A DNA stretch of 64,000 nucleotides from Cytophagales bacterium (GTDB taxonomy: Bacteria > Bacteroidota > Bacteroidia > Cytophagales > VRUD01), in the NCBI GenBank assembly GCA_019456305.1, contig VRUD01000002.1, forward strand, positions 20,118 to 84,117, given 5' to 3'. Each line of letters opens with the position of its first letter. The first letter of the stretch is position 1. The notes beneath the pieces were generated by a model that worked only from the letters and a program-made list of their open reading frames with translations, was not told the DNA's origin and made no database searches. A program made the translations under genes and the position numbers. Shown here piece after piece: positions 2,827 to 59,954 of this stretch.

Positions 2827-4374
2827 CTAAGTTTTCAAAATTTCAACCTTTTCCTCAACCAATTCCCTTGGAATCAGCGTTGGCCATAAACTCAGCAAAG
2901 TCCTATTTGTCTTACCCCAGCCGGGCATACTGTTCATACCCGGAGGACCGTTTAATGCCAGGCATACAATGGATTGCATCGCTATTTTCCCAACTTTAGG
3001 CTCCTGATGTTTTATCACAAGTCGTACCCCAATTTCATTTAAGTCTTCCTTTTCTTTGTCTGTTGGTATGGGCGCTGCACTTCCGTGAATACCGTTTATT
3101 CCGATAAAGGAATATTCAAACCGTTCAATTTTTGCTGGGTTCCGGACACTGCCTGCCTGCCGAAACCTTGGCGCAGGCAGGGATACTGGACCCGCCTGCC
3201 ATAGGCCTTTGGCGGGCAGGTGTCGGTTACTACTACTGCTACTGCCACTTTCACCTTTCCTACCGTTTGTGTTTTCTAATAGATGTAAATCACTCCAAAT
3301 TTTCTCTACGGCTTTGATGAACATTTGTGCTTTTTTGTAAGCATAGGGCCAGGAAAAGAAGAAAAATTGTTCACTTACATATCCTTCCATCAACCCGATG
3401 GTCATTTTTAAAAGTTCAGGCCTTGGTTTACCTTTAACTCCTGAAAATCGTACTTTGTTTTTATCAATATCTTCAATTTTGACTTCTGTCAGATCTACTA
3501 TTACGTCAGGAGTAATGTAATTGGCCGGGTCGTGAATTTCATAAATCAACTGCTCTCTTAAAGTATTTCTTGAAACTTTGCCACCCTGGCTTTCTAATTT
3601 TGTGAAAATTGCAGAGCCATCTTCCGAAACTTCTGCAATCGGATAACCCAGGTTGCTAATTTTATAATCCATGGGCCATTCAGCATAAGAATTTCCCCCG
3701 GATGCCTGTCCACCACATTCCAGTAAGTGCCCGATGGCGATACCACTGGCGAGAAGCCCCCCCGAGGGGGGGGAATTATTATCAAAATCCAATTTCCATC
3801 CAAAATGATGTATCAATATTCCCAATGTTAAGCAAGGATCGGCAACTCTGCCAGCCAAAATAATATCAGCTCCCTTGTCAAGCGCTTTGGCAATAGTTGA
3901 TGCACCGAGATATACGTTCGCATGTGTAGGCTGATATGGAGAAGATGAAAGAGGTTCACCTGAATCCATATTTTCTAGTTTATACCCGTTATTTTGCAAT
4001 TGCTTTAACTTAGGGAAAAAATCATCACCGGAAATCGTTGCGATCTTTAAACCTACAACGCCTTGTTTTTGGAGTATGGCAGCAACTTTTTTTGCAGCGC
4101 TCTCTGGATTGAGGCCTCCGGAGTTCGTAACTATTTTAATCCCATTTTTATAAGCTAACGGGAACAGGTTGGTTGCCATTAACTCAATATCTCTTGCATA
4201 TCCCAGATTGGGGTCTTTTAACCTGTCTTTTTGGAGAATAGACAGGGTCAATTCTGCCAAAGCATCATGTACTACATAATCTGCTGCTTTTTCTTTAACT
4301 ATAGCCATGGCAGCCGTGCTGCTGTCACCGTAAAAACCCTGGCCGGCTGCGATTCTGATAGGTGATTTGGTCAT
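2827..4374 (-). CDS. Acyclic terpene utilisation AtuA-family protein (DUF1446) carrying an in-frame repeat insertion
   Basis: 515 aa. N-terminus 'IRIAAGQGFYGDS', then 'ILAGRVADP', 'GHLLECGGQASGGN'. A low-complexity block 'GESGSSSSSNRHLPAKGLWQAGPVSLPAPRFRQAGSVRNP' is encoded by palindromic repeats at about 3128..3250. Confidence 0.8.
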   Translation of the reverse strand: MTKSPIRIAAGQGFYGDSSTAAMAIVKEKAADYVVHDALAELTLSILQKDRLKDPNLGYARDIELMATNLFPLAYKNGIKIVTNSGGLNPESAAKKVAAILQKQGVVGLKIATISGDDFFPKLKQLQNNGYKLENMDSGEPLSSSPYQPTHANVYLGASTIAKALDKGADIILAGRVADPCLTLGILIHHFGWKLDFDNNSPPSGGLLASGIAIGHLLECGGQASGGNSYAEWPMDYKISNLGYPIAEVSEDGSAIFTKLESQGGKVSRNTLREQLIYEIHDPANYITPDVIVDLTEVKIEDIDKNKVRFSGVKGKPRPELLKMTIGLMEGYVSEQFFFFSWPYAYKKAQMFIKAVEKIWSDLHLLENTNGRKGESGSSSSSNRHLPAKGLWQAGPVSLPAPRFRQAGSVRNPAKIERFEYSFIGINGIHGSAAPIPTDKEKEDLNEIGVRLVIKHQEPKVGKIAMQSIVCLALNGPPGMNSMPGWGKTNRTLLSLWPTLIPRELVEEKVEILKT

Positions 4375-5651: not shown

Positions 5652-6020
5652 TCCGATGCAAATATACGAATTTATACTAATGACACGAATAGGGTATAAT
5701 GCTAATATACTAATTAAATATAAAATACTTAAAATGCCTAAAATTTATGCCACAAAAACTCTAAAATCACTAAACCCCCACACCAAAATATACAATTTTA
5801 TATTTACATTATTTATCTTAGAGTTTTGGTGTGTGGGTAAATCACACAAAATTTTTTAGTGAAATTTCGTGTTTTTGTGCTTTAGTGGCGATTTTTTTAT
5901 TTTAGGCATTTTAAATTTTACATTTTAGGCATTTTTTTTATTAGTATCATTAGTCCCGAGTACTCGGGATTAGCATTTTATACTAGTATCATTAGTATTC
6001 ATTCGTATATTGGCATCGGT
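5652..6020. repeat. Composite nested inverted-repeat region (MITE-like)
   Basis: Terminal arms ccgatgcaaatatacgaat.. (5652) and ..attcgtatattggcatcgg (6020) are about 80% complementary over 38 nt. The inner part holds gccacaaaaac/ttttgtgc-type arms and a central CCCGAGTACTCGGG (5955..5968). Confidence 0.75.
5659..5666 (-). promoter_or_regulatory. -7 box TATATTTG carried inside the CCGATGCAAATATACGAA repeat
   Basis: 17 nt upstream of the hydrolase ATG (5642). Confidence 0.45.
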
Positions 6021-7237: not shown

Positions 7238-7325
7238 GGCGCATAGAGCATGGCGTATAGCTCCGTGAGTATAGTAGCTGTTAGCTGTTAGCTTTTAGCA
7301 ATAGATTTGATAACACAATATCAAA

Positions 7326-7512
7326 ATGAAGAACTTTAGAAGATTGAAAATTTGGGAACGAGGAATGGAATCTGTTAGCTTTTAGCTATTAGCTTTTGGC
7401 TTTTAGCTAACAGCCAACAGCTAACAGCTAACAGCTTTTTGAAGGGTTGCATGAAGAGCAACGCATGATCAACAGTTTCATTATTACACTGAAATTAACA
7501 GCTAACAGCTAA
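7326..7512 (+). pseudogene. Gutted four-helix-bundle (23S rRNA intervening-sequence protein family) gene
   Basis: N-terminal 'MKNFRRLKIWERGME' (7326..) runs straight into a stop. The C-terminal fragment '..EGLHEEQRMINSFIITLK' (7441..7512) follows. The middle is replaced by AGCTGTTAGC / AGCTAACAGC inverted arrays. Confidence 0.6.
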
Positions 7513-7597
7513 AAGCCCTTAACTAATGATAACCCGTAGCAATCGTAACTGATTAGTTACATAATTTATTATCTATGTGTAATTAGAAAATTTCATG

Positions 7598-18418: not shown

Positions 18419-18519
18419 GGTCCCGCCTGAGGCGGGACCAAAAAGCAGTTGGCAATTAATGCAATAAGTCAGAAGAATCAGGACAATTGCCAACTGCCCA
18501 TTGCTCCCGAGTACTCGGG
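18419..18519. repeat. Cluster of three different hairpin modules
   Basis: ggtcccgcc-tga-ggcgggacc (18419..18439). cagttggcaatt...aattgccaactg. CCCGAGTACTCGGG (18506..18519). Confidence 0.8.
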
Positions 18520-18524
18520 ACCAA

Positions 18525-25765: not shown

Positions 25766-26018
25766 ACCCCGTTACAAGTTTTAGCTATAACTTTTTCAGA
25801 AAATATGCAACTTTAATTAGTGTCTGTCTATAAAGTAGAATGTTTAATATATTATAGTAAAAACATAACTTCGTAAGTTGATTAAAAAGTCGGCAGTCCA
25901 CAGTCGGCAGTCAGCAAATTTGCCAACTGCCAACTGCCGACTTAATGTTGAAACTTTGGATTTTCATTAACGAATATTTTTGACATTATAGACAGACACT
26001 AATTAGTTGTAACGGGGT
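25766..26018. repeat. Nested inverted-repeat element between the TonB receptor and the TPR-CHAT gene
   Basis: Outer arms accccgttacaa / ttgtaacggggt. Middle arms ttaattagtgtctgtctataa (25813..25833) / ttatagacagacactaattag (25986..26006). Core hairpin aagtcggcagtccacagtcggcagtcagc aaattt gccaactgccaactgccgactt (25886..25942). Confidence 0.8.
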
Positions 26019-29412: not shown

Positions 29413-30552
29413 ATGGCTTCGAAGTACAAAGTAATAGGTGTAATGTCCGGCACCTCCCTTGATGGCGTTGATATAGCATTTTGCCATTTTGAAAATAAAG
29501 ATAATCGCTGGAATTTCAAAATTATTAAAGCACAAACAGTTTATTATAACACACAATGGAAACAACGGCTCGAAAATCTCAGTAAGCTGGATGCTTTGAC
29601 TTTTGTAAAAACTGACATTGACTACGGGATATATTTAGGTGATATCATCAAAAAATTTATTGAAGTAGAAAAAATAAAACCTGAATTCATTGCTTCCCAC
29701 GGGCATACTATTTTTCATCGCTCAAACCAGTCAACAGCCGGCAGTCGGCTGTTGGTAGTCAGTAATAATTTGATCAGCGCACAAATTGGTAATGGGGCAT
29801 ATATTGCAGCTACTTGCACGTTACCGGTAATTTGTGATTTTCGCTCCATGGATATTGCTTTGGGAGGCCAGGGGGCGCCACTGGTAGCAATTGGAGATAA
29901 ATTACTTTTTTCGGAATATGAATTATGTTTAAACCTGGGAGGTATTGCTAATATATCATTTAGGGGGGCTTCCTTTGATATCTGCCCCATGAATATAGTG
30001 CTCAATTATTTTGCAAACCAGTTGGATGTGCCCTTTGATAAAGATGGAAAAATAGCAATGTCGGGTAAATACAATGCTGAATTATTTAAAAAACTTAATC
30101 AATTAAAATATTACAAGTCAAAATATCCTAAATCTATTGGAAAAGAATGGATAGACGGGAACATACTACCGATATTGGAAAGTTCCGGGATCAGTATTAA
30201 AGACAAGCTAAATACTTTTTGCCATCATATCGCATACCAAATCACATCAGTAATAAAATCTAAAAACAATCATAATAAACAATGCCGGCTCTTAATAACC
30301 GGTGGCGGTACCTATAATGATTTTCTCATGTCTTGTTTAGAAACAAATTTACAGGGCAATATCCAACATCCAGCCTCCAACATCCAGCTCATTATTCCAG
30401 ACAAGCAATTAATAGAATACAAAGAAGCGCTTATATTTGCATTTTTGGGTGTATTAAGGATGAGGAATGAAGAGAATTGCTTAAAGTCAGTTACCGGAGC
30501 AAAGCGTAATAGTGTAGGTGGCGCTATTTATCAAGCAGAAAAAAGGTTTTAA
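29413..30552 (+). CDS. anmK: Anhydro-N-acetylmuramic acid kinase
   Basis: 'VIGVMSGTSLDGVD', 'SHGHTIFH', 'DFRSMDIALGGQGAPLV'. Carries an extra segment 'RSNQSTAGSRLLVVSNN' encoded by a palindrome. Confidence 0.9.
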   Translation: MASKYKVIGVMSGTSLDGVDIAFCHFENKDNRWNFKIIKAQTVYYNTQWKQRLENLSKLDALTFVKTDIDYGIYLGDIIKKFIEVEKIKPEFIASHGHTIFHRSNQSTAGSRLLVVSNNLISAQIGNGAYIAATCTLPVICDFRSMDIALGGQGAPLVAIGDKLLFSEYELCLNLGGIANISFRGASFDICPMNIVLNYFANQLDVPFDKDGKIAMSGKYNAELFKKLNQLKYYKSKYPKSIGKEWIDGNILPILESSGISIKDKLNTFCHHIAYQITSVIKSKNNHNKQCRLLITGGGTYNDFLMSCLETNLQGNIQHPASNIQLIIPDKQLIEYKEALIFAFLGVLRMRNEENCLKSVTGAKRNSVGGAIYQAEKRF

Positions 30553-30612: not shown

Positions 30613-30661
30613 TCGTCATTCGTCATTCGTCATTCGTCATTCGTAATTTGTAATTTGTAAT
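30613..30661. repeat. Tandem heptamers (tcgtcat x4, tcgtaat, ttgtaat x2) ending 5 nt before the permease ATG
   Basis: Read directly: tcgtcattcgtcattcgtcattcgtcattcgtaatttgtaatttgtaat. Confidence 0.9.
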
Positions 30662-30666
30662 TCAAC

Positions 30667-32016: not shown

Positions 32017-32241
32017 ATTTTCTGCCACAAAGAAATTTTTAGTTTTTCTTTATGGCTTTGTGGCAATTTTTTTTATCATTAGGATTTTTTAAAGAGTTCT
32101 AAAAAAACCATATATTTGGGCTTTTATAAATAAAATAGGCTTTAGTTTAATATAGCGTGTTAAACTGTATCTTAGCTCTGTAAATGTACACGAAATTGAT
32201 AAAATCTGCAGTCTGCAGTCGGCAAAAAGGCAAAATTGATA

Positions 32242-32362
32242 AAGTCGGCAGTTGGCAGTCGGCAATCTACAGTCCCCAGTCGGCAAAAAACAATTGCCGA
32301 CTGCTCCCGAGTACTCGGGATGGACTGCCGACTGCCGGCTGGAGACTGTCGACTGCCGACTT
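32242..32362. repeat. Long hairpin built from GCCGACT/GCCAACT heptamer arrays with a central CCCGAGTACTCGGG
   Basis: aagtcggcagttggcagtcggcaatctacagtccccagtcggcaa ... ttgccgactg ctCCCGAGTACTCGGGat ggactgccgactgccggctggagactgtcgactgccgactt. Confidence 0.8.
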
Positions 32363-32441: not shown

Positions 32442-33626
32442 ATGAAAACCTATAACATCATCTCAACTATAGTCGGAATATTATTTCTTTTTGTTTTCAC
32501 ATTATCGAATGGAATTCTTGCACAAGAAAATAAATGGATCATTTATGATACAATTAATTCAGAACTTCCTGCAAACTGGATCAATTCAATAGCAGTCGGC
32601 AATGACGGGAATGTATGGATAGGCGCTGGCAGCTATAGTGGCGGTGGTGTAGCAAAACTTGTCCTGCCAGTCTCGAGCTCCGAGGGGAACGGTAGCGAGG
32701 AGAATGTAGAGACGTTGCGTAGAGACGCCCAATTTGGACGTCTCTACGCAACGTCTCTACATTCTCCCAAATGGACTGTCTTTTATGCCTCAAATTCGGG
32801 ATTACCGGAAAATTACATAAGGTCGGTTGCGCTAGATAAAAAAGGAAATCTGTGGGCTGGTACAGAATATAGCGGCATTGCCATGTTTGATGGCAGTAAC
32901 TGGACGGTTTACAATACTTCTAATTCTGGCCTGCCTGTAAATTACGTCAAATCAATATGTGTTGATGAAAAAGGAAATACATGGATTGGAACTTTTGGCG
33001 GGGGTATAGTAAAACTAACTTTCAGTGGAAGCGAAGGTTTGCCAAAATGGACAATTTATAACACTTCAAATTCAGGTATTGCCGGTGATATCATTGGAGC
33101 AATAAATATTGATCAGAAAGGAATAGTTTGGGTTGGTACTTATGAAGGTGGACTGTCAGGATTTGACCCTGAAAAATCTAAGCAACCGTGGGTGGTACTT
33201 AATACTTCAAATTCAAAGCTGCCCAATAACCGTATTAAATCAATTGCTTTTGACAAAAAGGGAAATACCTGGCTTGGAACCAATGGAGGCCTGGTAACAT
33301 TTGCTCCCGGTGAGTCAAAAAGCTGGAAGGTCTATGATCAAAGTAATTCTGACCTCCCTGATAATAAGGTTTGGGCCGTTGCTATTGACCAGGATGATAA
33401 TATTTGGATAGGAACAGATAAGGGTGGTATTGCAAAACTTGTCCCGGGCGTTAGCGAGGGATCCCCCGGGGAAAAAGCTGAAATTTCGAACGAAGCAACA
33501 TGGTCAATTTATAACAAAAAATCAAAAACAGGCCTAACTGTTAATACGATCGTATCAATTGCCATTGACTCCCGGGGATACAAATGGGTTGGGACCTATG
33601 GCGGGGGGATAGCGGTGTTTAAATAG
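32442..33626 (+). CDS. Secreted Reg_prop (two-component-regulator propeller) repeat protein without Y_Y_Y/TM
   Basis: 394 aa with a signal peptide. Repeated 'YNTSNSGLP.N.V.SI..D.KGN.W.GT..GG' blades. Contains a 63-nt perfect hairpin in-frame. Confidence 0.85.
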   Translation: MKTYNIISTIVGILFLFVFTLSNGILAQENKWIIYDTINSELPANWINSIAVGNDGNVWIGAGSYSGGGVAKLVLPVSSSEGNGSEENVETLRRDAQFGRLYATSLHSPKWTVFYASNSGLPENYIRSVALDKKGNLWAGTEYSGIAMFDGSNWTVYNTSNSGLPVNYVKSICVDEKGNTWIGTFGGGIVKLTFSGSEGLPKWTIYNTSNSGIAGDIIGAINIDQKGIVWVGTYEGGLSGFDPEKSKQPWVVLNTSNSKLPNNRIKSIAFDKKGNTWLGTNGGLVTFAPGESKSWKVYDQSNSDLPDNKVWAVAIDQDDNIWIGTDKGGIAKLVPGVSEGSPGEKAEISNEATWSIYNKKSKTGLTVNTIVSIAIDSRGYKWVGTYGGGIAVFK

Positions 33627-33735
33627 TTATTGGATGTCGGACCCGCCTGCCATAGGCCTTTGGCGGGCAGGTGTTGGATGTTGGAAGATTTTAAAGAATA
33701 TATGTAAAAAAAAATGTGGAAATAAAATATAAATT

Positions 33736-35783: not shown

Positions 35784-36009
35784 TGTCTAACATTTAAAAT
35801 TCTGACCCCGAGTGCTCGGGGGCAAAATATTTAGTTTTTGGTTGTTAGTTTTTGGTTATGGTTTGATAGTTTCTGGTTATAGTTTTTTAGTTTGTTGGTC
35901 GTGCCATGAGTCCGGCATTAGCAAACTATTGAACTAATGAACTAAAACTAACAACCAAATAACTAAAACTAAAAACCAAAAACCATGAACTAAAATTTTG
36001 GTTCTGGCA

Positions 36010-41111: not shown

Positions 41112-43889
41112 TCAAACTATATCATCATCCTGCTTTTTATTTTTCAGATCCCTGCCTCTTAAATATCTCCTCAAAAACAACTGCACCGGCAGCAAGGTTG
41201 AAGCCAGTACCAAATTTAACAAGGTTTTGATGATAGGAGCGCTTCCAACATATTCTTCGTACAAAGGTTCGCACAAATTTTGGATAAATTCAAAAATAAC
41301 GAATAATGTGATATACACCATTATAGTGACTGTTCTGCCTTTACTGCCTTTACGGCTTGCTAATAAAGTACCTCCTATCAAAAGCATAAAAAACAGCAAC
41401 TGTGCGCTGTAGAACCAGCCAGTTTCCCAATAAGGCGGGGTAATAGTAATTGCAACAAAGATCCCATTTTGCCAAATGCCGTCATTATTGGAAGCTTTGA
41501 CCTTAAAAACATAATCGCCAGGGTCAATGTTTGTGTATTTTGCAATTCTGTTGCCGGCATCGCAATAGGTCCAGTCCTTGTCAAAATCTGCCAGCTTGTA
41601 GGCATATTGATTTTTCAGGGGGTCTGTAAAATCAAGTGCAGCAAATTCAAAGACGAAATTATTTTCATCATAGCTTAGCGTAACATTATTATTTTCATTG
41701 AGATCTTTAACAATTTGCCTGTTTTTAACTTTAAATTTTGTAATGGCGATGGGGGGTAGGTGTGGGTTGTCCACTACACTATCAGGATGAAAGATGTTAA
41801 ATCCGTGCATGCCTCCAAACACCATCTCACCTGTTTTTAATTTGCAATGTGCCTTGGTAAATTCGTTGTTCTGTAATCCGTCAGATTCGGTATAGATTCG
41901 AAAGGTTTCTCTTTCGGTGTCAAACTTCACAAGACCTTTATCAGTGCTTATCCATAGATAGCCGTGATCATCTTCCAGCATGCCTCCGATATTATTGCCG
42001 GGCAGTCCGTTTTCTGTTGTATAATGGCTGAAATTTCTTTTTTCTTTATTGAACTTGTTTAACCCATTGCTACCAATCCATACAATACCTCTGCTGTCTT
42101 CAAAAATTACAGTTATCGCATCACCCCCACCCCAAAATGTCGTTGAATCATGGGGTTTGTAAATAAAATGTTCTACTTCATCGTTTTCAAGGTTCATGCG
42201 GCATAATTTTCCATCAGTGGTGCCAACCCAAAGGTAACCTTTGCTGTCTTCATATATTTTTTTTGATAAACTATACAGGTAAGATAATTCATGAAGTTGT
42301 TTTTGGTAATATTTGCCTTTTTGTTTATCAAACAATTTTACACCCTGATTTCCCCATATTCCAACCCAAAAATTACCTTTGCTGTCTTCAAATAGATCAT
42401 GTATCCAGTCATAGTTATTATTATATATGAAAAAGCTATCGTTTTTTTTATCATACCTGAGCAATCCGTTGTTAGCTGCCCACAAACCAACCCACATAGT
42501 GCCGGATCTATCTTTATAAATCACTTGAACTTGATCTCTTTTGGTGTTAGCCGTATTAAACCGGTAATTTTTAAAAGTTCCATTTTTGCGGTCAAATACG
42601 TCCAGTCCTTTATCTTCCGTTCCGATCCACAGATTTCCATCATCATCTTCTATTATTGTTCTTATCCTGTTTGATGAAAGGGAATTATTATCTCCAACAA
42701 TATGCCTGTAATGTTTAAATTTGTACTTGTTCCTGCTGTATTTGCTGATGCCCTGGCCGGTTCCAATCCAAATATTTCCAGCTCTGTCTTCGTATATTTT
42801 ATTGATAGTATTATCAATTAGTGAACCCGGATCATTTTGATTATGTGGAGTGAATAATAGCTTGTTTTTTAAAACATCATACCTACAAACTCCTTCTTCT
42901 CTCATATAACCACCAAACCAGATCAATCCACGCCTATCTTCAATTATATCATACACTGGTCCGACAGGGAATTTTTGAAAATCCTGACGTTTAGGAAAGT
43001 GTTTGAAAAAATCAGGTCGATTTGCCAGATATGTATACCAATGTTGATCCCCAAGCCAGAGGTTTCCATAACGATCATTTAAAATACAACTTAAACATCC
43101 ACCTTTAATACCGGGAATTTCTTTGCTGCCCCTCTCATATATTTTCATTGTTTCCTCATCTCTATCAAATTTTATAAGACCAATACCACAACTCACGATC
43201 CACAAATTACCTCCCTTGTCTTCGTATATTTGATGTGCAGGATAATTTGGATGTCTATACTCACTGCCATGTTCAAAATGTTTAAACCTTGTTCCGAGCC
43301 CCGCCAAAGGCGGGGAGGGATCTCTTTTTTTATCACTAGTTCCTTTATTAACAGATCCTTTGCTGTCGCTCAGGACAAGCTTATTCAACACCCCATCTGC
43401 GGTCTCAATCCATAGTATTCCGCTTTTGTCGGCATAGATTTCCCTTACATAGTTATCGCTTAAGCTATTTTTATTATCCACATCATGGAAATAGTTAATG
43501 AACAGCTCATTGTTCCTGTCGTATTTATTCAGTCCTTTAAGAGTACCAATCCATAAATTACCGTAAATATCTTCTGTGATGGAAGAAATATAGTTGTCAG
43601 AGATCGTAGTGGAATCATGTGGTTTGTTAGTGTAAATTTGAAACTGGTATCCATCATACTTATTTAATCCTTCATAGGTTCCGATCCACAAAAACCCATA
43701 TTTATCCTGGAAGATATCTAATATCTCATTGTTGCTTAATCCGTCTGCTGTAGTGAGATTATCGAACTTTGATTGGGTGTCTTTTATTTTAATTACTTTG
43801 AACCTGTTACTGGAGTGATTGTAGGTTTGGGCTGTAATTTTTTCTCCCCAAAAAATGCCTGCAAGGATAAGTAGTGTGTTGATTTTCAT
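41112..43889 (-). CDS. Reg_prop/Y_Y_Y sensor paralog A ending in the conserved 3-TM module
   Basis: 925 aa. Signal peptide, many 'DGL.NN.I..I.ED..GN.WIGT..GL.K(Y/F)' blades, Y_Y_Y 'NNFVFEFAALDFT..NQYAYKL..FDKDW'. The C-terminus is 'WFYSAQLLFFMLLIGGTLLASRKG..FEFIQNLCEPLYEEYVGSAPIIKTLLNLVLASTLLPVQLFLRRYLRG'. Confidence 0.9.
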   Translation of the reverse strand: MKINTLLILAGIFWGEKITAQTYNHSSNRFKVIKIKDTQSKFDNLTTADGLSNNEILDIFQDKYGFLWIGTYEGLNKYDGYQFQIYTNKPHDSTTISDNYISSITEDIYGNLWIGTLKGLNKYDRNNELFINYFHDVDNKNSLSDNYVREIYADKSGILWIETADGVLNKLVLSDSKGSVNKGTSDKKRDPSPPLAGLGTRFKHFEHGSEYRHPNYPAHQIYEDKGGNLWIVSCGIGLIKFDRDEETMKIYERGSKEIPGIKGGCLSCILNDRYGNLWLGDQHWYTYLANRPDFFKHFPKRQDFQKFPVGPVYDIIEDRRGLIWFGGYMREEGVCRYDVLKNKLLFTPHNQNDPGSLIDNTINKIYEDRAGNIWIGTGQGISKYSRNKYKFKHYRHIVGDNNSLSSNRIRTIIEDDDGNLWIGTEDKGLDVFDRKNGTFKNYRFNTANTKRDQVQVIYKDRSGTMWVGLWAANNGLLRYDKKNDSFFIYNNNYDWIHDLFEDSKGNFWVGIWGNQGVKLFDKQKGKYYQKQLHELSYLYSLSKKIYEDSKGYLWVGTTDGKLCRMNLENDEVEHFIYKPHDSTTFWGGGDAITVIFEDSRGIVWIGSNGLNKFNKEKRNFSHYTTENGLPGNNIGGMLEDDHGYLWISTDKGLVKFDTERETFRIYTESDGLQNNEFTKAHCKLKTGEMVFGGMHGFNIFHPDSVVDNPHLPPIAITKFKVKNRQIVKDLNENNNVTLSYDENNFVFEFAALDFTDPLKNQYAYKLADFDKDWTYCDAGNRIAKYTNIDPGDYVFKVKASNNDGIWQNGIFVAITITPPYWETGWFYSAQLLFFMLLIGGTLLASRKGSKGRTVTIMVYITLFVIFEFIQNLCEPLYEEYVGSAPIIKTLLNLVLASTLLPVQLFLRRYLRGRDLKNKKQDDDIV

Positions 43890-43996: not shown

Positions 43997-46663
43997 TTAC
44001 ATCAATTCCCCTTTATCCTTTCCTTTCTGCTGTTTACCTCTCAGATATTTCCTCAAAAACAACTGCACCGGCAGCAAAGTTGAAGCCAGTACCAAATTTA
44101 ACAAGGTTTTGATGATAGGAGCGCTTCCAACATATTCTTCGTACAAAGGTTCACATAAATTTTGGATAAACTCAAAGATCACAAACAAACAGATATAAAC
44201 GAGTATGGTGATTGTGCGTGTTCCGGCACCTTTACGGCTGGCAATCAAGGTGCCTCCGATGAGCGCCATGAAGAACAGCAGCTCGGCGCTGTAAAACCAC
44301 CAGGATTGCCAGTAAGGTGGTTTGATGGTGAAGAAAAAGGTTGTAGGTTTCCAATTCCAAACACCATCATTATTGCAGGCGATAACCTTGAATGTGTATT
44401 TTCCCGGATTAAGGTTGGAGTATGTGAAGTGTGTTTCCTGAGTTTCGGATGACCATTTTTCATCAAATCCTTTAAGCTGATAACGGTAATGCACTTTTTC
44501 AGGTATGGTCAGAGAGATACCTATGTATTCGAAGGTGAGATGGTTTTTGTTGTAGGGTAGCACTAAACCAATTGGCATGCCGCTGTTTACAGAATCACAG
44601 TAAGGATGCCAATCTTCTTCACCTGAGAAGAGTTTTATTGCAGTAATATGTGTTAAGGGCTCAATTGTATTGGGTATATCTGCATTGGGATTGTATTTTA
44701 CTGCGCCTTTAGTAGTACCAAACCATAAATTTCCTTTTTTATCAATGCAGATATTAGACCCACATTCGGTCCCCCTGAAACCCTCTTGTATACCATAATG
44801 TTTAAATTTTTTCTTGCCTGTTTTGTTGTAAAGGGCTACATCAAATTTATTAATCCCTCTACCGGTAGCAGCCCATAAATTTCCGCTACGGTCAAAAATT
44901 AGTGATGCGATGATGTCATTGCTTAAGCCATCTTGAGTTGTAAAGCTGTCAATAACTTCTAAAGTTTTTTTATGATGAAATTTGCATTTAAAAATACCTT
45001 CTCCGTCAGTTCCAAACCACAGATTGCCTTGCAGGTCCTGGGTGATACTAAATACTGCTTTATAAGTGAAACTTTCATTTGCAGAAATGTTTTTAATAGT
45101 ATCCCCATTAAATACATTGACGCCACCACCATAGGTTCCGAACCACATATTGTAAGATATGTCTTCATAGATGCATAAAATTCTATTCGGATTTCTGCCA
45201 CCTTCCACTCTAAAATACTCTTTCTTTTTTCCGTCATATCTATATGCTCCGGCACCTCCTGAGCCAAACCACATATTACCTGAATGATCCTCATAAACAC
45301 ACATCCAGCCATTGAAAGGAACGCTAATCAATTCATTGTTATGAAATTGAAAACCTCCTGTTCTCGCCATATCATGCGAAAACCATATATCTCCGTTTTT
45401 ATCCTCTGCAACGGAAGTAATTCTGCTAATGGGCAAACCCTCTATTGAAGTAAAATTTGTAAACCCGCTATTGTCAGCACTTAAAGAATCGGGGCTATAC
45501 TTACTGATCCCCCCTTCGGTCGCGAACCAACTATTACCATTACGGTCTTCAATAATCCCATTGATCGTATTATTTACCAATCCAACTTCTTCATTATAAT
45601 AAGTAAACTTTTCGCCATTATATTTACAAACGTCACTGCCAAAAGTTCCAATCCAGATATTTCCTTCCCTATCATGTAATATTGACCACGTGGAATTAAT
45701 AGGGAGTCCCTGCTTTGTTGTAAAGTTGGTAAAAACCTTACCGTCATATTTGAATATTCCTCTTTCAAATGTTGCAATCCAGATATTGCCTTCAACATCT
45801 TTTGTCAACCCGATCATTGGAGAACCAAGTGCAAAACTTGTGATGTTATCTCCATCATGCCCATGTGGGTCAAATTTTTTTATGCTTCCACTCCAGGACA
45901 CACACCAAATACTACCATCATCATCTTCAACAATTCCAAAGCTTGCTGCAATTGAGCTTACCTTAATAACAGTATCACCCGTTGTTCCTTTCGGATCATA
46001 TTTAAAAAGTCCGCCACGCAATGCTCCAAACCACAGATTATCCTCATTATCCTGCATCATTGCACCGATCACGTTGCTTTTATATTTGCTGTTGATCTGA
46101 TAATTTTTAAATAAAATTGTATCAACCCCGCCTGTTTGCGGGGCTGAGTCTTTTTGATCAATGGTAGAACCTTGCGAATAATATGAAATAAGCTTGTTTG
46201 TGCCAACCCATAAATTTCCATCTTTATCTACAAGCAATGACCTGACGAAATTATAGGGTAATCCATTTTTAGTTGTATAAGCAGTAAATTTTGTACCATC
46301 AAATTTACTTAAGCCATTTGTTGTACCGAACCACATATTCCCATCATGATCTTCAGCAATAGAAAGTACCCTGTAATTGAGCAAGCCGGCTTTATCCGTA
46401 AAATTTTTAAAAGTTTTACCGTCAAACCGGCTCACACCGCCATGGGTGCCAAACCAGATGTAGCCCCTGCTGTCCTGGTACATGCATTCAATGGCTGATT
46501 GCACCAGGCCGTTTTCTACGGTGTAATAGGAAAAGTTATGCTGCCCTTCTGCTGGGCGGACAGATTGAGCCCATGATTCAAGATTAAAAATTGTTGAACA
46601 AAGCAAAATCCCGATGATAATCTGGAAAAATAGGAGAATGGATATGATTTGTAATTTTTTCAT
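43997..46663 (-). CDS. Reg_prop/Y_Y_Y sensor paralog B ending in the conserved 3-TM module
   Basis: 888 aa with the same architecture. Y_Y_Y 'NHLTFEYIGISLTIPEKVHYRYQLKGFDEKW'. C-terminal module as in paralog A. Confidence 0.9.
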   Translation of the reverse strand: MKKLQIISILLFFQIIIGILLCSTIFNLESWAQSVRPAEGQHNFSYYTVENGLVQSAIECMYQDSRGYIWFGTHGGVSRFDGKTFKNFTDKAGLLNYRVLSIAEDHDGNMWFGTTNGLSKFDGTKFTAYTTKNGLPYNFVRSLLVDKDGNLWVGTNKLISYYSQGSTIDQKDSAPQTGGVDTILFKNYQINSKYKSNVIGAMMQDNEDNLWFGALRGGLFKYDPKGTTGDTVIKVSSIAASFGIVEDDDGSIWCVSWSGSIKKFDPHGHDGDNITSFALGSPMIGLTKDVEGNIWIATFERGIFKYDGKVFTNFTTKQGLPINSTWSILHDREGNIWIGTFGSDVCKYNGEKFTYYNEEVGLVNNTINGIIEDRNGNSWFATEGGISKYSPDSLSADNSGFTNFTSIEGLPISRITSVAEDKNGDIWFSHDMARTGGFQFHNNELISVPFNGWMCVYEDHSGNMWFGSGGAGAYRYDGKKKEYFRVEGGRNPNRILCIYEDISYNMWFGTYGGGVNVFNGDTIKNISANESFTYKAVFSITQDLQGNLWFGTDGEGIFKCKFHHKKTLEVIDSFTTQDGLSNDIIASLIFDRSGNLWAATGRGINKFDVALYNKTGKKKFKHYGIQEGFRGTECGSNICIDKKGNLWFGTTKGAVKYNPNADIPNTIEPLTHITAIKLFSGEEDWHPYCDSVNSGMPIGLVLPYNKNHLTFEYIGISLTIPEKVHYRYQLKGFDEKWSSETQETHFTYSNLNPGKYTFKVIACNNDGVWNWKPTTFFFTIKPPYWQSWWFYSAELLFFMALIGGTLIASRKGAGTRTITILVYICLFVIFEFIQNLCEPLYEEYVGSAPIIKTLLNLVLASTLLPVQLFLRKYLRGKQQKGKDKGELM

Positions 46664-46798
46664 CCTGCTTAAATTTTAATGACTGTCCGTTTGTTTATAC
46701 CTATCTGTTTTATTTAGCGCATGACTGCATGCATCCATCCCGAGTACTCGGGAATCATGCTAAGTATAGTTATTAGGTATAACAAAGCGGATAACCAT

Positions 46799-49700
46799 TT
46801 AAATTTTAATCCCAATAACCAACACATCATCTATCTGCTCCTCATTGCCTTTCCATTTTTCAAAGGTAATATCTAATTTTTCACGCTGCTGTTCCATTGA
46901 AAGATCCTGTATTTCAAGGATAAGCTCTTTGAATCGTTTGTAGGAAAACTTTCTTCCTTCAGAGCCACCAAATTGATCAGCATAGCCATCTGAAAACAGG
47001 TAGATGCTGTCCCCTTTTTTTAAATTAATGGTATGGTCTGTAAAAATTTTTGTTCTGCCCCTGCTATCTGTTTCGCCCACCTTATCAATGCCAATCGGAA
47101 AACTGTTGCCTTTGACCTCACACAGATCATCACCAAAGGTGCGGACTTTATCATTATGCCCCAAGTCCCCCAGCTCGTGGATGATGTTTTTTCTAATTAT
47201 GTATAAAGGATTGTAAGCGCCAGCATATTGTAGTGAACGGGCATGCCCGTTCACTACACCTATACTGCAAATAGCAATATCCATCCCATCTTTTGTTTCA
47301 GAGCCCTCACCTGTTTGTTTTAAGGCATTCACAATACCATCATTGAGCTCTCCCAATATCTTTGCCGGTTGGTTAATTTTCCTTTTATTTATTATTTCAT
47401 TTAACAGGTCATTGCCTATCATGCTCATAAAGGCCCCGGGCACGCCATGGCCGGTGCAATCAACTGCCGCTATAATAAAAGAGGCCCCCCTATCAGTCCC
47501 CCCTAAATCCCCCCCAAAGGGGGGGACTTTGCCATCGCTTTTGCCTTGGGGAAGGGTAGAGTGTTGGCCAGTTCTCCCCCCTTTGGGGGGAGTTAGAGGG
47601 GGGCTGATGGGGCTGCTAAACCAATAAAAATCTCCACTCACAATATCCTTTGGCTTAAACAAAATGAATGACTGCGGAAAAACTTTATTGACCACATCAA
47701 CAGGAGGGAGAATAGCTTCTTGTATCAACTTTGCATAATTGATGCTATCTGTAATATCCTTATTCCTTTGTTCAATAACTTCATTGGTCTGAGCAATTTC
47801 CTCATTCAAAAAGTTTAACTCTTCATTCGTTATTTTCAATTCATCTCTTTGTACCGTTAATTCTTCTTTTTGCATTAGTATTTCCTCTTTCTGCGTCATA
47901 ACTTCAGCAGTACGTATTTTCACTTGATGCTCTAACTTCTTTTTTGCCTTTTGTAAATTTCTCACACGCCAACTATAAAAACCATAAATACTGCTCCCAC
48001 CGGTAATAAAACATAGCATATAAAACAATAAGGTTTGCCAAAAAGGAGGGGTGATGATAAAACTAAAAGTGGTTGGCTTTTTATTCCAGACTCCATCATT
48101 ATTACATGCTTTTACTTTTAGGATGTATTTTCCGGGCGGAATATTGGAATAGGTTACTTCATTTTTTTTTGTAATTGGCGACCAGTGTTGATCAAACCCG
48201 TCTAATATCCACTGATATCGCACTTTTTCCGGAATTTTAGTACTGATCCCGACAAAATCAAAAGTAAGATGATTTTGATTGTAGGATAGTTTCAAATTCA
48301 AGGGTAAAGCAAACCAGGGAGAAAAGCTATCAATCTGATAGTGGGAGCGCCATTTTGCACTGTTTACTTCTTCAAAAAACAGTTTTATTCCTGTAATGTA
48401 TGTTCTTGCCTCAACCATATTAGGCTTATCTTCTTTAGGGGAATATTTGTTGACGTCATTCACTGTACCAAACCACAGATTTCCTTTTGAGTCTCTGTAA
48501 ACAGCATTATTATTACACTCAACGCCCCTGAATCCATCTAATATAGAATATTGTTTAATTTTATAAGAGCCATTACTACTATCCGGGATAATTTTGTTGA
48601 TCCCGTTATTTGTCCCTGCCCAGATATTTCCCTCATCATCAACTATGAGGGAAACAATTGCGGCATTGGTTAAGCCGTCTTTAGTAGTAATATAAGACCA
48701 TGAATTATCAGGATGCAATATTGAAATCCCCTCGCCATAAGTGCCAAACCAACTATTTTGATAATTATCTTCAATAATTGATATAACACGGTGGTCGCTT
48801 AAACCTTCAATAAATTTTCCTACTAAATTGGGTAAGTTTTTTTTAAATTTCTTCACATGCTCCTTTTTAATAAAATGCGTGAATTTTTCGTTGGAAATAT
48901 CATCACTTGCTTTGTTGAGCAAACTTACACCTTCGCTCGTACCAAGCCATATTCTTCCTTTGCTGTCTTCATAAATTTTATTAACAGTGTTCCCAATGAT
49001 CCCTGTTTGAGTGTTATAATTAATAAATGAACCGGGTTTGTTTGAAAGGGAGTATTCCGGATTCAAGTATAAAAATTTAACAGCGCCTCCTCCTTCAGTA
49101 CCTACCCATAAATTTCCCCTGCTATCCACGAGCATTGAAAATATGTGATCGCTTGTCAGCCCATCAAGTTCAATACAGTTTTTGTTTCCATCGGCACAGG
49201 ATTTTTTTCTTTTATAAATTAGAAACTTATTCCCCGGTGTGGTGATGTCTTTTTCAATTAATTTATTGATACCTCCTCCTAAGGTACCAATCCAAATATC
49301 TCCGTTCTTATCATCAACAATAGCATGGACAACGCTTTCACCGATTCCCTGATCCCATGAATATTGTGTAAAATTGTTTCCATCAAAATTAAATACACCG
49401 CCACCCCAGTTGCCAAACCACATTTGCCCATATTTGTCTTCATGAATGGAAACCGCTGATTTAATGTTTAGATAGGTAAAAATCTTACCACTAAACATAG
49501 AAGCTCCACCGCTATATCCACCAAACCAAAGATTACCCTCACGGTCTTCCATAATAGAAATGATATGGTTATTACATAAACCTTGCCCCTCGTGATACCG
49601 TAAAATAGCGCCGGTTTGGGGATCATATTTTTCTACACCAAAACCGTCATGACCGAACCAGATATTACCTGCCTTGTCTTCAAAAATATCCCAGACACGG

Positions 49701-50623: not shown

Positions 50624-53410
50624 CTACACCAACCCATCTTCAACTCCTCCTTGTTTTTTCTCTTTACCTCTCAGATATTTCCTCAAAAACAACTGCACAG
50701 GCAGCAAAGTTGAAGCCAGTATCAAATTTAAAAAAGTCTTTATGATAGGAGCGCTGCCGACATATTCTTCATATAAAGGTTCGCACAAATTCTGAATAAA
50801 CTCAAAGATCATAAACAAACAAATATAAACCAGGATAGTAACGGTCCGGTCTTTTACTCCTCTGCGCCTGGCTAATAATGTTCCGCCAATTAAAAGCATA
50901 AAAAACAGCAGTTGGGCGCTGTAAAACCAGCCTGTTTCCCAGTATGGTGGTTTGACTATGAAGGAAAAGGTGGTGGGTTCTTTGTTCCAAACACCGTCAT
51001 TATTGCATGCTTTTACCTTTATCGTGTATTTACCTGGAGGAATATTGGAATAAGTGGCAATATGTTCCTTTCCGGGAGGGGACCAGGCATTGTCCATTCC
51101 TTCCAGCTTGTATTGGTATTTTACTTTTTCAGGGATGGTTAAACTGATACCAACAAAATTAAAAGTTAAATGATTTTTGTAGTAGGGAAGTTTCAGATTA
51201 AAAGGTAACCCAGTATTTGCATGAATACTATCAGAAAAGTTTAAATAGTTAAAATCTTTTAAAAAAAGCCTAATCCTGGTAATATGTGTTTTCGGTTGGT
51301 TGGTATTTATTTTGTCTTTTCGGGGATCAAATTTTGTAATTCCCTTAACAGTTCCAAACCATAAATTGCCTTTTGTATCACTAAAGATGGAATTGCATTC
51401 AATACCTGTAAATCCTTCTAATTTGCCATAATGCTTAATTTCAATTTCACCTGTAGTGTTAAACTTATTGATATTAAATCTGTCAATACCTTTATTTGTA
51501 CCGGCCCAAAGATACCCCACTTCATCTATTACCATCGAAATAACACTATTGGAACTTAAGCCATCGGCTTGCATAATGGTTTGAAAATATTTACCATCTT
51601 TTCTTTCATCATTATATTTGCTTACACCACCTCCTAAAACACCAAACCAGACGTTACCTTCATTATCTTCCTGTATCGTTGTAACAATTGTACCTTCTAA
51701 ACCTAAATTGTCTTTTTTAGTAAAACCTTTCATAGTTTTACCGTCATATTTATTTATTCCACCATATGAAGCCATCCAAACATTTCCTTTACTATCAACT
51801 AATATATCATTTATATATCTTTGAACTAACCCATCATTTAAAGTAAAATTAGTAAACATGGGAGGGGATCCCTCGCTGTCGCCCAGGACAAGCTTTGAAA
51901 CGCCACCATTTGTTCCAATCCACAAACACCCTTCACTGTCTTCGTCAATTGAAATAATTCTGTTAGTGATCATTCCGTCATCTCTTGTAAAAATGGTCAA
52001 TTCATTAAATTCTTTTTTAGGATCATACTTGCATAGCCCTGCCGGTGTGCCTATCCAGATATTGCCTTTCCTATCCTTAAGCAAAACAGTGACAACATTG
52101 ACCGGTAATCCTTCATTTGTAGTATAATTTGTAAAAGTTAGAGAGGAGCTAAGCTTACTCAACCCGCCTTCAGTAGCAAACCAGATATTTCCATCCTGAT
52201 CTTCTGTGAATGAACTTACTTTATGATTTATGATACCATCTTTTTCATAATAATGAGTAAACGCATCCCCACTGAATTTGCATAAACCACTTCCACTTGT
52301 CCCTATCCAGATGTTGCCTTCATTATCTTCGAGTAAGCTTCTTACAGAATTTCCGCTTAATCCATTTTCCTCCCTGTAATTTTTAAATCCTACACCCGAT
52401 TTTAAATCGGATGTACCAGCACGATCGTATTTGCTAACACCACCATTACAGCCAAACCAAAGATTTCCCACTTCATCTTCAATTATAGTAAGCACCATAT
52501 TACCTGCCAATCCATCTGCTACAGAATAATGTTCAAAATTTTTGCCATTATAATAACTCACCCCTGTATAATAGTCGCCCATCCAAATAGACCCTTTGTT
52601 ATCTTCAAGCAGAGCACAAATAAATCTGTGTTCAAGGCCTTGTTGTGTGGTAAAAGTTTCAATATTTTTGCCTGCCTCGCCCGCCTGCCATGTTTGGGCT
52701 TTGCCTTTGGAATGTACAGACGCCCAATTTGGGCGTCTCTTGTCGGGGAGCGTATCAGGGTAATTATACCTGAATAAACTTGATTTTACCCCAAACCATA
52801 TATTATTGTTTTTATCCTGCATCACTGCCCAGACCTGGCTTTCTTCCAAATTATTTTTTTTACTGAAATTTGTGAATTCCTTTCCATTGTAAGTACAGAT
52901 GCCTTTGGTGGTGGCTAACCATAACACGCCCTTGTGATCTTCTATTATTTTTAATATGATGTTACTATTTAAACCATCTTTTACGGTATAATTAATAAAG
53001 TACAGACGCCCAATTTGGGCGTCTCTGTTAACATCATCATTCTTTTCTTCACCAGAACTGCCACTGCTACTGCCTTTATATTTCCCCAATCCACCGCTGT
53101 CCATGCCAATCCAGATATTTCCTTTTGAATCTTCCATGATTGAATAAATACGATCATTACCCAATCCGTCTTTTGAAGTGAAAATAACGAAATTAGTACC
53201 ATCAAAGCGACATAAACCGCCTCCGTAAGTTCCAATCCATAAATAACCTTTACTGTCCTGCAATAATGCATAGACCTGAGATTGCGGTAATCCATTTTCT
53301 ATGGTATACCAGGAAAAGTTGTATTGTTGAGCAGTGCAGTGAGCAGTACGCAGTATACAATAAGCAATTAACAGAGCAAGATAAATTGCAGGAACGATAT
53401 TTCTTAGCAT
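50624..53410 (-). CDS. Reg_prop/Y_Y_Y sensor paralog D ending in the conserved 3-TM module
   Basis: 928 aa. Y_Y_Y 'NHLTFNFVGISLTIPEKVKYQYKLEGMDNAW'. C-terminal module as in A and B. At least four repeat-encoded inserts. Confidence 0.9.
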   Translation of the reverse strand: MLRNIVPAIYLALLIAYCILRTAHCTAQQYNFSWYTIENGLPQSQVYALLQDSKGYLWIGTYGGGLCRFDGTNFVIFTSKDGLGNDRIYSIMEDSKGNIWIGMDSGGLGKYKGSSSGSSGEEKNDDVNRDAQIGRLYFINYTVKDGLNSNIILKIIEDHKGVLWLATTKGICTYNGKEFTNFSKKNNLEESQVWAVMQDKNNNIWFGVKSSLFRYNYPDTLPDKRRPNWASVHSKGKAQTWQAGEAGKNIETFTTQQGLEHRFICALLEDNKGSIWMGDYYTGVSYYNGKNFEHYSVADGLAGNMVLTIIEDEVGNLWFGCNGGVSKYDRAGTSDLKSGVGFKNYREENGLSGNSVRSLLEDNEGNIWIGTSGSGLCKFSGDAFTHYYEKDGIINHKVSSFTEDQDGNIWFATEGGLSKLSSSLTFTNYTTNEGLPVNVVTVLLKDRKGNIWIGTPAGLCKYDPKKEFNELTIFTRDDGMITNRIISIDEDSEGCLWIGTNGGVSKLVLGDSEGSPPMFTNFTLNDGLVQRYINDILVDSKGNVWMASYGGINKYDGKTMKGFTKKDNLGLEGTIVTTIQEDNEGNVWFGVLGGGVSKYNDERKDGKYFQTIMQADGLSSNSVISMVIDEVGYLWAGTNKGIDRFNINKFNTTGEIEIKHYGKLEGFTGIECNSIFSDTKGNLWFGTVKGITKFDPRKDKINTNQPKTHITRIRLFLKDFNYLNFSDSIHANTGLPFNLKLPYYKNHLTFNFVGISLTIPEKVKYQYKLEGMDNAWSPPGKEHIATYSNIPPGKYTIKVKACNNDGVWNKEPTTFSFIVKPPYWETGWFYSAQLLFFMLLIGGTLLARRRGVKDRTVTILVYICLFMIFEFIQNLCEPLYEEYVGSAPIIKTFLNLILASTLLPVQLFLRKYLRGKEKKQGGVEDGLV

Positions 53411-57779: not shown

Positions 57780-59954
<2,175 letters not shown>

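Follow-up and report, generated by a model that had tools for sequence, protein, structure and literature searches.

The window analysed here, a stretch of 64,000 nt from contig VRUD01000002.1, is part of a Cytophagales metagenome-assembled genome (MAG) and matches scaffold_396 of ENA ERZ23499938. Its guanine-plus-cytosine (GC) content is ~37%, and hairpin blocks stand out against that background as GC islands. Two such hairpins, designated E1 and E2, each 30 bp long, are located in frame within a gene of the AtuA/DUF1446 family, and an identical copy of E1 is found at an unlinked locus 30 kb away, just behind a gene for a Reg_prop protein. The features of the AtuA locus are as follows.

2827..4374, minus strand: host gene of the AtuA/DUF1446 family, 515 aa (Pfam PF07287, E 1.9e-120)
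3139..3285, minus strand: clade-specific variable loop of AtuA, 49 aa, residues 364-412 (19-sequence alignment)
3152..3181, plus strand: E2, a diverged relative of E1, 30 bp, CCTGCCTGCCGAAACCTTGGCGCAGGCAGG, with a 9-bp perfect stem
3182..3190, plus strand: spacer between E2 and E1, 9 bp, GATACTGGA, part of an (ACTGGAT)2 heptamer repeat
3191..3220, plus strand: E1, a 30-bp GC-rich imperfect palindrome, CCCGCCTGCCATAGGCCTTTGGCGGGCAGG, whose minus-strand product in AtuA is LPAKGLWQAG

The NCBI entry for the host protein reads 'MAG: DUF1446 domain-containing protein [Cytophagales bacterium]'. Its match to PF07287 comes in two stretches with the insert between them, and its length of 515 aa compares with 458-466 aa in most AtuA orthologs. 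Region 3128-3250 lies within open reading frame (ORF) 2827-4374, and the in-frame translation given for it in a preliminary description of this DNA (...GESGSSSSSNRHLPAKGLWQAGPVSLPAPRFRQAGSVRNP...) was exact. Sixteen of the 18 aligned orthologs have nothing between the segments 'IWxxL' and 'PxxIER', where the window protein has 49 additional residues; the insert is therefore lineage-specific, and its length falls inside the 40-60 residues that had been estimated by eye. Two relatives, P0002 and P0009 (85% and 83% BLASTP identity), carry a shorter insert (NLLDDTNNGE..SSSNLHPVS.VRN.A), and their gaps in the protein alignment coincide exactly with LPAKGLWQAG and LPAPRFRQAG, the latter being the peptide encoded by E2 in the same reading frame as for E1. 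The loop is composed of an older low-complexity insert of ~29 aa, common to two relatives, together with E1 and E2. In the AlphaFold model of AtuA, which is of moderate quality overall (mean predicted local distance difference test score, pLDDT, 62.5), residues 363-415 form a coil with pLDDT <30 for 368-413, flanked by a helix (345-362) and a strand (416-424); no AtuA relative with a solved structure was found in the PDB. AtuA has a further variable loop, in which a GC-rich hairpin, CCCCCCCGAGGGGGGGG, at 3741-3779 encodes SPPSGGL, and close AtuA relatives differ in this region also.

The exact borders of the two units were obtained from the AtuA genes of two relatives, L122 (JGI 3300022665) and L123 (GCA_022567835.1), which were aligned to the window gene. 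Both genes have neither E1 nor E2, the gaps being exactly 30 bp and 30 bp. On the sense strand, the window reads AACCGACA[CCTGCCCGCCAAAGGCCTATGGCAGGCGGG]TCCAGTATC[CCTGCCTGCGCCAAGGTTTCGGCAGGCAGG]CAGTGTCC, where brackets enclose the two 30-bp units, and L123 reads AATCTGCA[]TCCAGTATC[]CAGTGCCC, with both units missing. The spacer (sense TCCAGTATC) is uninterrupted in both empty sites, which identifies it as pre-existing target DNA. At E1 the gap can be placed in a single way only, to the exact base, and no duplication is present there; at E2 the ambiguity is at most 1 bp. Since the GGA|TG next to E1 already occurs in the empty sites, the flanking bases GGA...TGT represent target sequence and the inserted unit is 30 bp, not 36 bp. 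The empty site itself is a short heptamer repeat, (ATCCAGT)2. E1 and E2 were gained by, or precisely lost from, the chromosome as exact units without target duplication. According to the preliminary description, the element may be or have been mobile; the exact 30-bp presence and absence relative to L122 and L123 supports this with stronger evidence than was then at hand.

Both hairpins noted earlier at 3128-3250 are present. The stem of the E1-type hairpin contains one mismatch and one G-T pair. In comparison with shuffled sequences, E2 folds clearly better (z = -3.2), as does the whole 96-nt insert (z = -3.0), and E2 is the only one of the two hairpins for which this holds. Open reading frames traverse E1 in five of six frames and E2 in all six.

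The second copy of E1 interrupts a tandem array:

33630..33687, plus strand: heptamer tandem array interrupted by E1, TTGGATG TCGGA^TG TTGGATG TTGGAAG, as read from the sequence
33642..33671, plus strand: second E1 copy, intergenic, 30/30 identical (36/36 with GGA and TGT)

As had been reported, an identical 36-mer, GGACCCGCCTGCCATAGGCCTTTGGCGGGCAGGTGT, is found at 3188-3223 and 33639-33674, both on the plus strand and with 0 mismatches; by chance, none would be expected. The intergenic 36-mer begins 12 nt past the stop codon of a 394-aa Reg_prop ORF (32442-33626), which places the 30-bp E1 15 nt past it, and is bracketed by TTGGATGT at 33630-33637 and 33674-33681; these positions, too, agreed with the preliminary description. 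Identity between the two E1 copies reaches 3 nt past the unit on either side, and 11 of 15 flanking bases are common to them (GATNNNGGA^TGTNGG). Without the 30-mer, the intergenic site is a four-unit array, TTGGATG|TCGGATG|TTGGATG|TTGGAAG, and Tandem Repeats Finder reported 22 rows of period 7, some overlapping, in the 64-kb window. The TTGGATGT pair belongs to this heptamer array, and is therefore a pre-existing repeat and not a duplication made at insertion. No terminator-like or promoter-like site was found at the intergenic copy, and a T-tract was also absent.

Additional copies of E1-type elements in this genome were sought by blastn-short over ~100 kb, including contigs L142 and L143 of the same assembly. 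Four full copies and one fragment were detected, three of the four full copies being inside ORFs. One further full member, CCCGCCTGCC-19 nt-GGCGGGCAGG (39 nt, L142 491-529), was located in frame within a Maf gene. It corresponds to an insertion of exactly 13 residues (PARQHDSSSQAGG) at a turn relative to Bacillus subtilis Maf (PDB 1EX2), and is missing from 15 of the 16 aligned Maf orthologs, which are metagenome-derived. No direct repeat was seen in the sequences on either side of it (..tcatcatt / taagcaaac..). At the same turn, an unrelated metagenome Maf ortholog (L264, 1001-1603) has a different insert of ~11 aa (PAA..DEQNDQEG).

The fragment was found in another Reg_prop gene, paralog D:

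52678..52752, minus strand: in-frame insert of composite structure, net 69 nt, in Reg_prop paralog D (ORF 50624-53410)

A truncated relative of the element had been noted near 52680, and the sequence is real: positions 1-12 of E1 are matched exactly at 52680-52691. Common descent of this fragment with E1 is plausible but not proven. The same insert holds a different palindrome, AGACGCCCAATTTGGGCGTCT, at 52718-52740. The closest ortholog, P0242/L141 (74% identity), lacks the whole block in its protein as well as in its DNA.

There are other in-gene palindromes. The 394-aa Reg_prop gene contains a 55-nt nested palindrome, GTAGAGACGTTGC[GTAGAGACGCCCAATTTGGACGTCTCTAC]GCAACGTCTCTAC, at 32706-32760, which falls in a 60-nt gap relative to an 84%-identical ortholog (L124), and paralog D carries its inner palindrome twice, in two frames (RRPNWAS and RDAQIGRLY). 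The paralog D ortholog itself (L141 243-3176, JGI 3300010931) has three GC-rich in-frame inserts of its own, for example SPPLSPPRGGTGQP..PPSGGLGGAA, at other propeller positions, and loop inserts thus turn over independently in each lineage. Inserts of the kind seen in Reg_prop and AtuA loops differ between relatives of 74-85% identity. A census of GC islands revealed in-ORF hairpins at 3741-3779 (AtuA), 43290-43324, 46123-46150 and 47480-47590 (47480-47533 and 47566-47590) as well. Hairpin inserts within genes are a genome-wide habit of this organism, and AtuA is no special case. Some of the palindromes form a family with GTAG/CGTC tags, GTAGAGACG...CGTCTCTAC, which occurs at 32706-32760 (one copy nested in another), 52718-52740 and 53004-53026.

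We further examined the occurrence of E1-type hairpins in other organisms by scanning one genome per species with the stem pattern CCCGCCTGCC-N6-12-GGCGGGCAGG. At least 120 genome stretches and 16 viral stretches contained it. Among the matches listed there were 141 in genome and viral loci, 104 of which, from many phyla, were in loci of <58% GC; the most frequent lengths of these 104 were 30 nt (40 matches), 27 nt (37) and 32 nt (18). Recurrent loops in the low-GC matches included AAGCCTT, AAAGCAAAGC and AAAGCCTTGTGC. Matches in high-GC isolates had unique loops and look like chance occurrences. Perfect-complement versions of the stem in viral contigs were considered as well, to see whether the stem is just a GC hairpin of a generic sort. 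Most of them came from contigs with 65-74% GC and had unique loops, and they look like ordinary hairpins; the asymmetric stem therefore appears to be a signature of the family. Relaxed variants of the stem gave almost no additional copies within the fetched loci and were not counted as evidence.

The taxa represented among the listed matches were Bacteroidota (Saprospiraceae, Chitinophagales, Bacteroidales), Ignavibacteriota, Chlorobiota, Chloroflexota, Patescibacteria, Omnitrophota, Planctomycetota, Kiritimatiellae, Desulfobacterota and one archaeal bin. Contigs of >180 kb with the E1-type stem came from Bacteroidota, Chloroflexota, Patescibacteria, Omnitrophota, Kiritimatiellae and delta-proteobacterial/Desulfobacterota MAGs, and shorter contigs from other phyla or phage-like sequences. 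Nearly all members of the family come from MAGs; some are on megabase contigs, and at least one is in a cultured isolate, Compostibacter hankyongensis. Many copies are carried, for example, by a 4.1-Mb Chitinophagaceae contig (CAVWGT010000006) and a 1.47-Mb Chloroflexia contig (CAVUAE010000001). The exact 26-nt E1 core gave 0 matches in JGI metagenome contigs, and neither PLSDB plasmids nor GenBank phages matched the 40-nt E1 region. Rfam matched only tRNA in the window and 17 related loci and contained no family for the E1-type hairpin, and a literature search with strings of the element sequence returned nothing relevant.

Of the low-GC copies, 28 of 104 were located in ORFs of at least 150 aa. 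Lengths of 27 of these 28 were multiples of three, compared with 50 of the 76 copies elsewhere (Fisher p = 0.0009), and in-frame lengths are thus selected for inside genes. Pfam-confirmed hosts include RluD-type pseudouridine synthase, DNA polymerase I, BipA and UvrC, and one phage portal-like ORF had two matching copies. In four loci (L011, L018, L054 and L112), an E1-type stem is nested in a second palindrome to give a composite of ~70 nt (CCTGCCTGCGCGAAGC[...]CGCTTCGGCGAAGGCAGG); almost the same composite occurs in one MAG each of the delta-proteobacteria, Thermodesulfobacteriota and Chloroflexota.

It is possible, although we consider it rather doubtful, that all E1-type hairpins constitute a single horizontally spreading family of micro-elements, with the stem CCCGCCTGCC/GGCGGGCAGG, a fixed C.A mismatch and G.T pair, and lengths of 27, 30, 32 or 39 nt, which would insert precisely and without duplication into genes as well as intergenic DNA and be moved by a widely shared activity. 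If so, this cross-phylum family would be among the smallest and most widely distributed mobile DNAs.

Several known systems resemble E1 and E2. Yeast and fungal mitochondria have GC clusters, which are short palindromes rich in GC. They spread through an AT-rich genome and now and then lie in frame within coding sequence; these are organellar, some of their classes have short target duplications, and their sequences are unrelated to E1 and E2. Small dispersed repeats (SDRs) are likewise very small repeats whose mobility has been inferred, in genomes that also contain heptamer tandem repeats. In the 2008 work of Elhai and colleagues, this mobility was reportedly deduced by comparing orthologous sites, and we know of no enzyme that acts on SDRs. 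The SDRs of Elhai et al. 2008 (Genome Res 18:1484) are cited in PMC3116915 and PMC5861425, and the latter describes them as elements of 21-27 nt in Nostocaceae that are inferred to be mobile and are reported only from that family. Unlike SDRs, the elements described here are 27-39 nt long, have unrelated sequences, occur in many phyla and reside in a Cytophagales host, not in Nostocaceae.

Repetitive extragenic palindromes (REPs) are also dispersed, multi-copy, GC-rich imperfect palindromes of 20-40 bp, often located just 3' of genes. Di Nocera et al. 2013 (PMC3733652) documented REPs that lie within genes, notably uvr genes, polA and those for pseudouridine synthases, and the E1-type stem shares with them both the existence of in-frame copies and these classes of host genes. 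However, E1, E2 and the Maf copy each have different flanks, in which no GTAG or CGTC tag is present, and no gene for a REP-associated tyrosine transposase (RAYT) flanked by E1-type repeats was found within ~100 kb of this genome. The extragenic bias of REPs is also not seen, three of the four full copies here being intragenic, and identical stems recur across many phyla.

Rickettsia palindromic elements (RPEs; Ogata et al. 2000), which PMC10969869 describes as palindromic repeats in frame in many unrelated Rickettsia genes, are similar in that palindromic inserts apparently do not destroy the proteins. However, RPEs measure ~100-150 bp and are limited to Rickettsia and its relatives, whereas E1 and E2 are 30 bp and found in a Cytophagales genome. 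The 'peel-and-paste' elements of the IS200/IS605 family and their miniature derivatives (REPINs, PATEs) share with E1 and E2 an imperfect hairpin, which serves them for recognition, and no target duplication; their target is set by a short sequence, and this genome has two Y1 genes of the IS200 type. On the other hand, IS200/IS605 elements need distinct left and right ends on the two sides of the mobile DNA, and a lone 30-nt hairpin is at most a putative substrate. With respect to transposable elements of the miniature inverted-repeat type (MITEs), there was no duplication of fixed length, the units were 30-39 bp, and no parent insertion sequence with matching ends was found in the ~100 kb. 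E1 and E2 work like REPs, RPEs and SDRs, and we place them with the REP/SDR kind but outside any named family.

These observations are probably best explained if E1 and E2 are very small (27-39 nt), GC-rich, imperfectly palindromic, non-coding repeats of the REP/SDR kind, which add 10 residues in frame and may be copied either as single-strand hairpins by an HUH/Y1 enzyme or through template switching. The two units lie 9 bp apart in an AtuA loop that was already variable and is disordered according to the model. With a length that is a multiple of three and nearly no stop codons, each unit just adds 10 residues; the protein survives because the frames of E1 and E2 are open and the insert falls in a coil of low pLDDT. 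The added peptide may be tolerated and have no function of its own, and it is probably neutral filler in a loop. Copying would proceed via a single-stranded hairpin intermediate, possibly by an HUH/Y1 enzyme of the IS200/IS605 or RAYT type acting in trans. Such an enzyme is proposed because transposition of this type does not duplicate its target and can be directed to a short target sequence; an imperfect hairpin without target duplication is a hallmark of single-strand HUH/Y1 transposition (IS200/IS605, RAYT/REP) (PMC3116915). Replication template switching at microhomology would be an alternative route, and the 11 of 15 flanking bases shared by the E1 copies fit target selection and microhomology-primed template switching alike.

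The two Y1 genes of the IS200/IS605 type are located at 15850-16311 (minus strand) of the window and at 17347-17790 of L001, ~3 kb beyond the window start. Both proteins exceed the cutoff of NF033573 (IS200), remain under the RAYT cutoff and are 31% identical to each other. Each gene is bracketed by hairpin repeats of its own, ATAATGTCGCCCCTACAGGGCTT and AACCGTTTTAACGGTT, the flanks of the window gene being 15745-15830 and 16360-16445.

Several points speak against this REP/SDR-like explanation. The hairpins flanking the Y1 genes are unrelated to E1 and not dispersed in the ~100 kb of this genome that was searched, tblastn with one of the two Y1 proteins detected no relative in 139 fetched loci, and no mobilising enzyme linked to an E1-type element was found. 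There is no consistent target: the target sequence of E1 recurs neither at E2 nor at the Maf copy. E1 alone shows no significant excess of folding over composition shuffles (z = -1.6). Gain in this genome and precise loss in the relatives both fit the AtuA comparison, as the relatives may be a sister clade, and no orthologous empty site was available for the intergenic copy, since L124, the only contig related to this locus, ceases to match as soon as the stop codon is passed. Moreover, the window comes from a single metagenome assembly.

An alternative, which we regard as unlikely but deserving attention, dispenses with a dedicated transposase: the 30-mer would pass from locus to locus through template switching during replication or through short-patch gene conversion, with the GGA...TGT flanks and heptamers as the priming microhomology. 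The extended identity of the E1 copies (3 nt at either end, and 11 of 15 bases in the flanks), the location of both in slippage-prone heptamer tandem repeats and the failure to find a cognate enzyme are consistent with it. However, E2 and the Maf copy have no such flanking similarity, and this route leaves unexplained both the recurrence of one imperfect stem in many phyla and the discrete lengths of the family.

A second alternative, that the hairpin is mainly a functional cis-element (a REP-like stabiliser of mRNA 3' ends, a terminator or a protein-binding site) and that coding copies are incidental or act as mRNA structures, appears improbable. The position of the intergenic copy just 3' of a stop codon is classic for REPs (PMC3733652) and would suit such a role. 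Nevertheless, that copy has neither a T-tract nor a terminator-like site, Rfam has no match, and coding sequence holds three of the four full copies seen here; differences in presence among close relatives also speak against a required function at these sites.

The preliminary description had interpreted the element as a 36-bp unit bounded by an 8-bp target-site duplication, TTGGATGT, which would imply a MITE-like element moved by a cut-and-paste transposase of the DDE type. The presence of TTGGATGT on both sides of the intergenic copy and the inverted termini had pointed in this direction, but it now seems highly improbable. The L122/L123 empty sites give a unit of 30 bp with a duplication of 0-1 bp, the Maf copy is flanked by no repeat, and the TTGGATGT pair sits in a heptamer array of four units, such arrays being numerous in the genome; copies without flanking duplications, with the pair explained by a local repeat, were the outcome named beforehand as contradicting the duplication, which is therefore refuted. 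In addition, 30 bp is far under the 70-300 bp of bacterial MITEs (PMC3733652).

Finally, we give almost no credence to an assembly or consensus artefact of the MAG: although the window protein is known from a single contig and family members are nearly all from MAGs, the reading frame is preserved, the family also occurs in megabase contigs and in cultured C. hankyongensis, and the multiple-of-three bias within ORFs indicates selection on real DNA.

This locus provides a case, resolved to the base pair and from a little-studied Cytophagales lineage, in which 30-bp units enter or leave a gene precisely. Such elements keep reshaping surface loops, including those of AtuA, Maf and several Reg_prop propellers. 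The inserts lengthen proteins and add peptides of low complexity that are specific to a lineage; alignments and the annotation of domains can be misled by them. The main interest lies in the cross-phylum family and in the manner in which such small DNA is copied; if the family were one mobile lineage, the question would be which enzyme or host process moves it.

Two other classes of repeats were observed in the window. A perfect 16-nt palindrome, TCCCGAGTACTCGGGA, occurs outside long ORFs at 5954-5969, 18505-18520, 32305-32320 and 46738-46753, with a variant at 35807-35820; it was also found at L001 8406-8421 and L143 6233-6248 and represents a separate REP-like family. Additional heptamer arrays, mostly intergenic, were located at 7275-7516, 25888-25942, 30361-30388, 30613-30663, 32205-32361, 50509-50540 and 59138-59177. 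Their units vary among arrays (TAGCTGT, AGTCGGC, TCGTCAT, GACTGCC, AGCAGTA and TTTTTAC), and they resemble the short tandemly repeated repetitive (STRR) heptamers of filamentous cyanobacteria.

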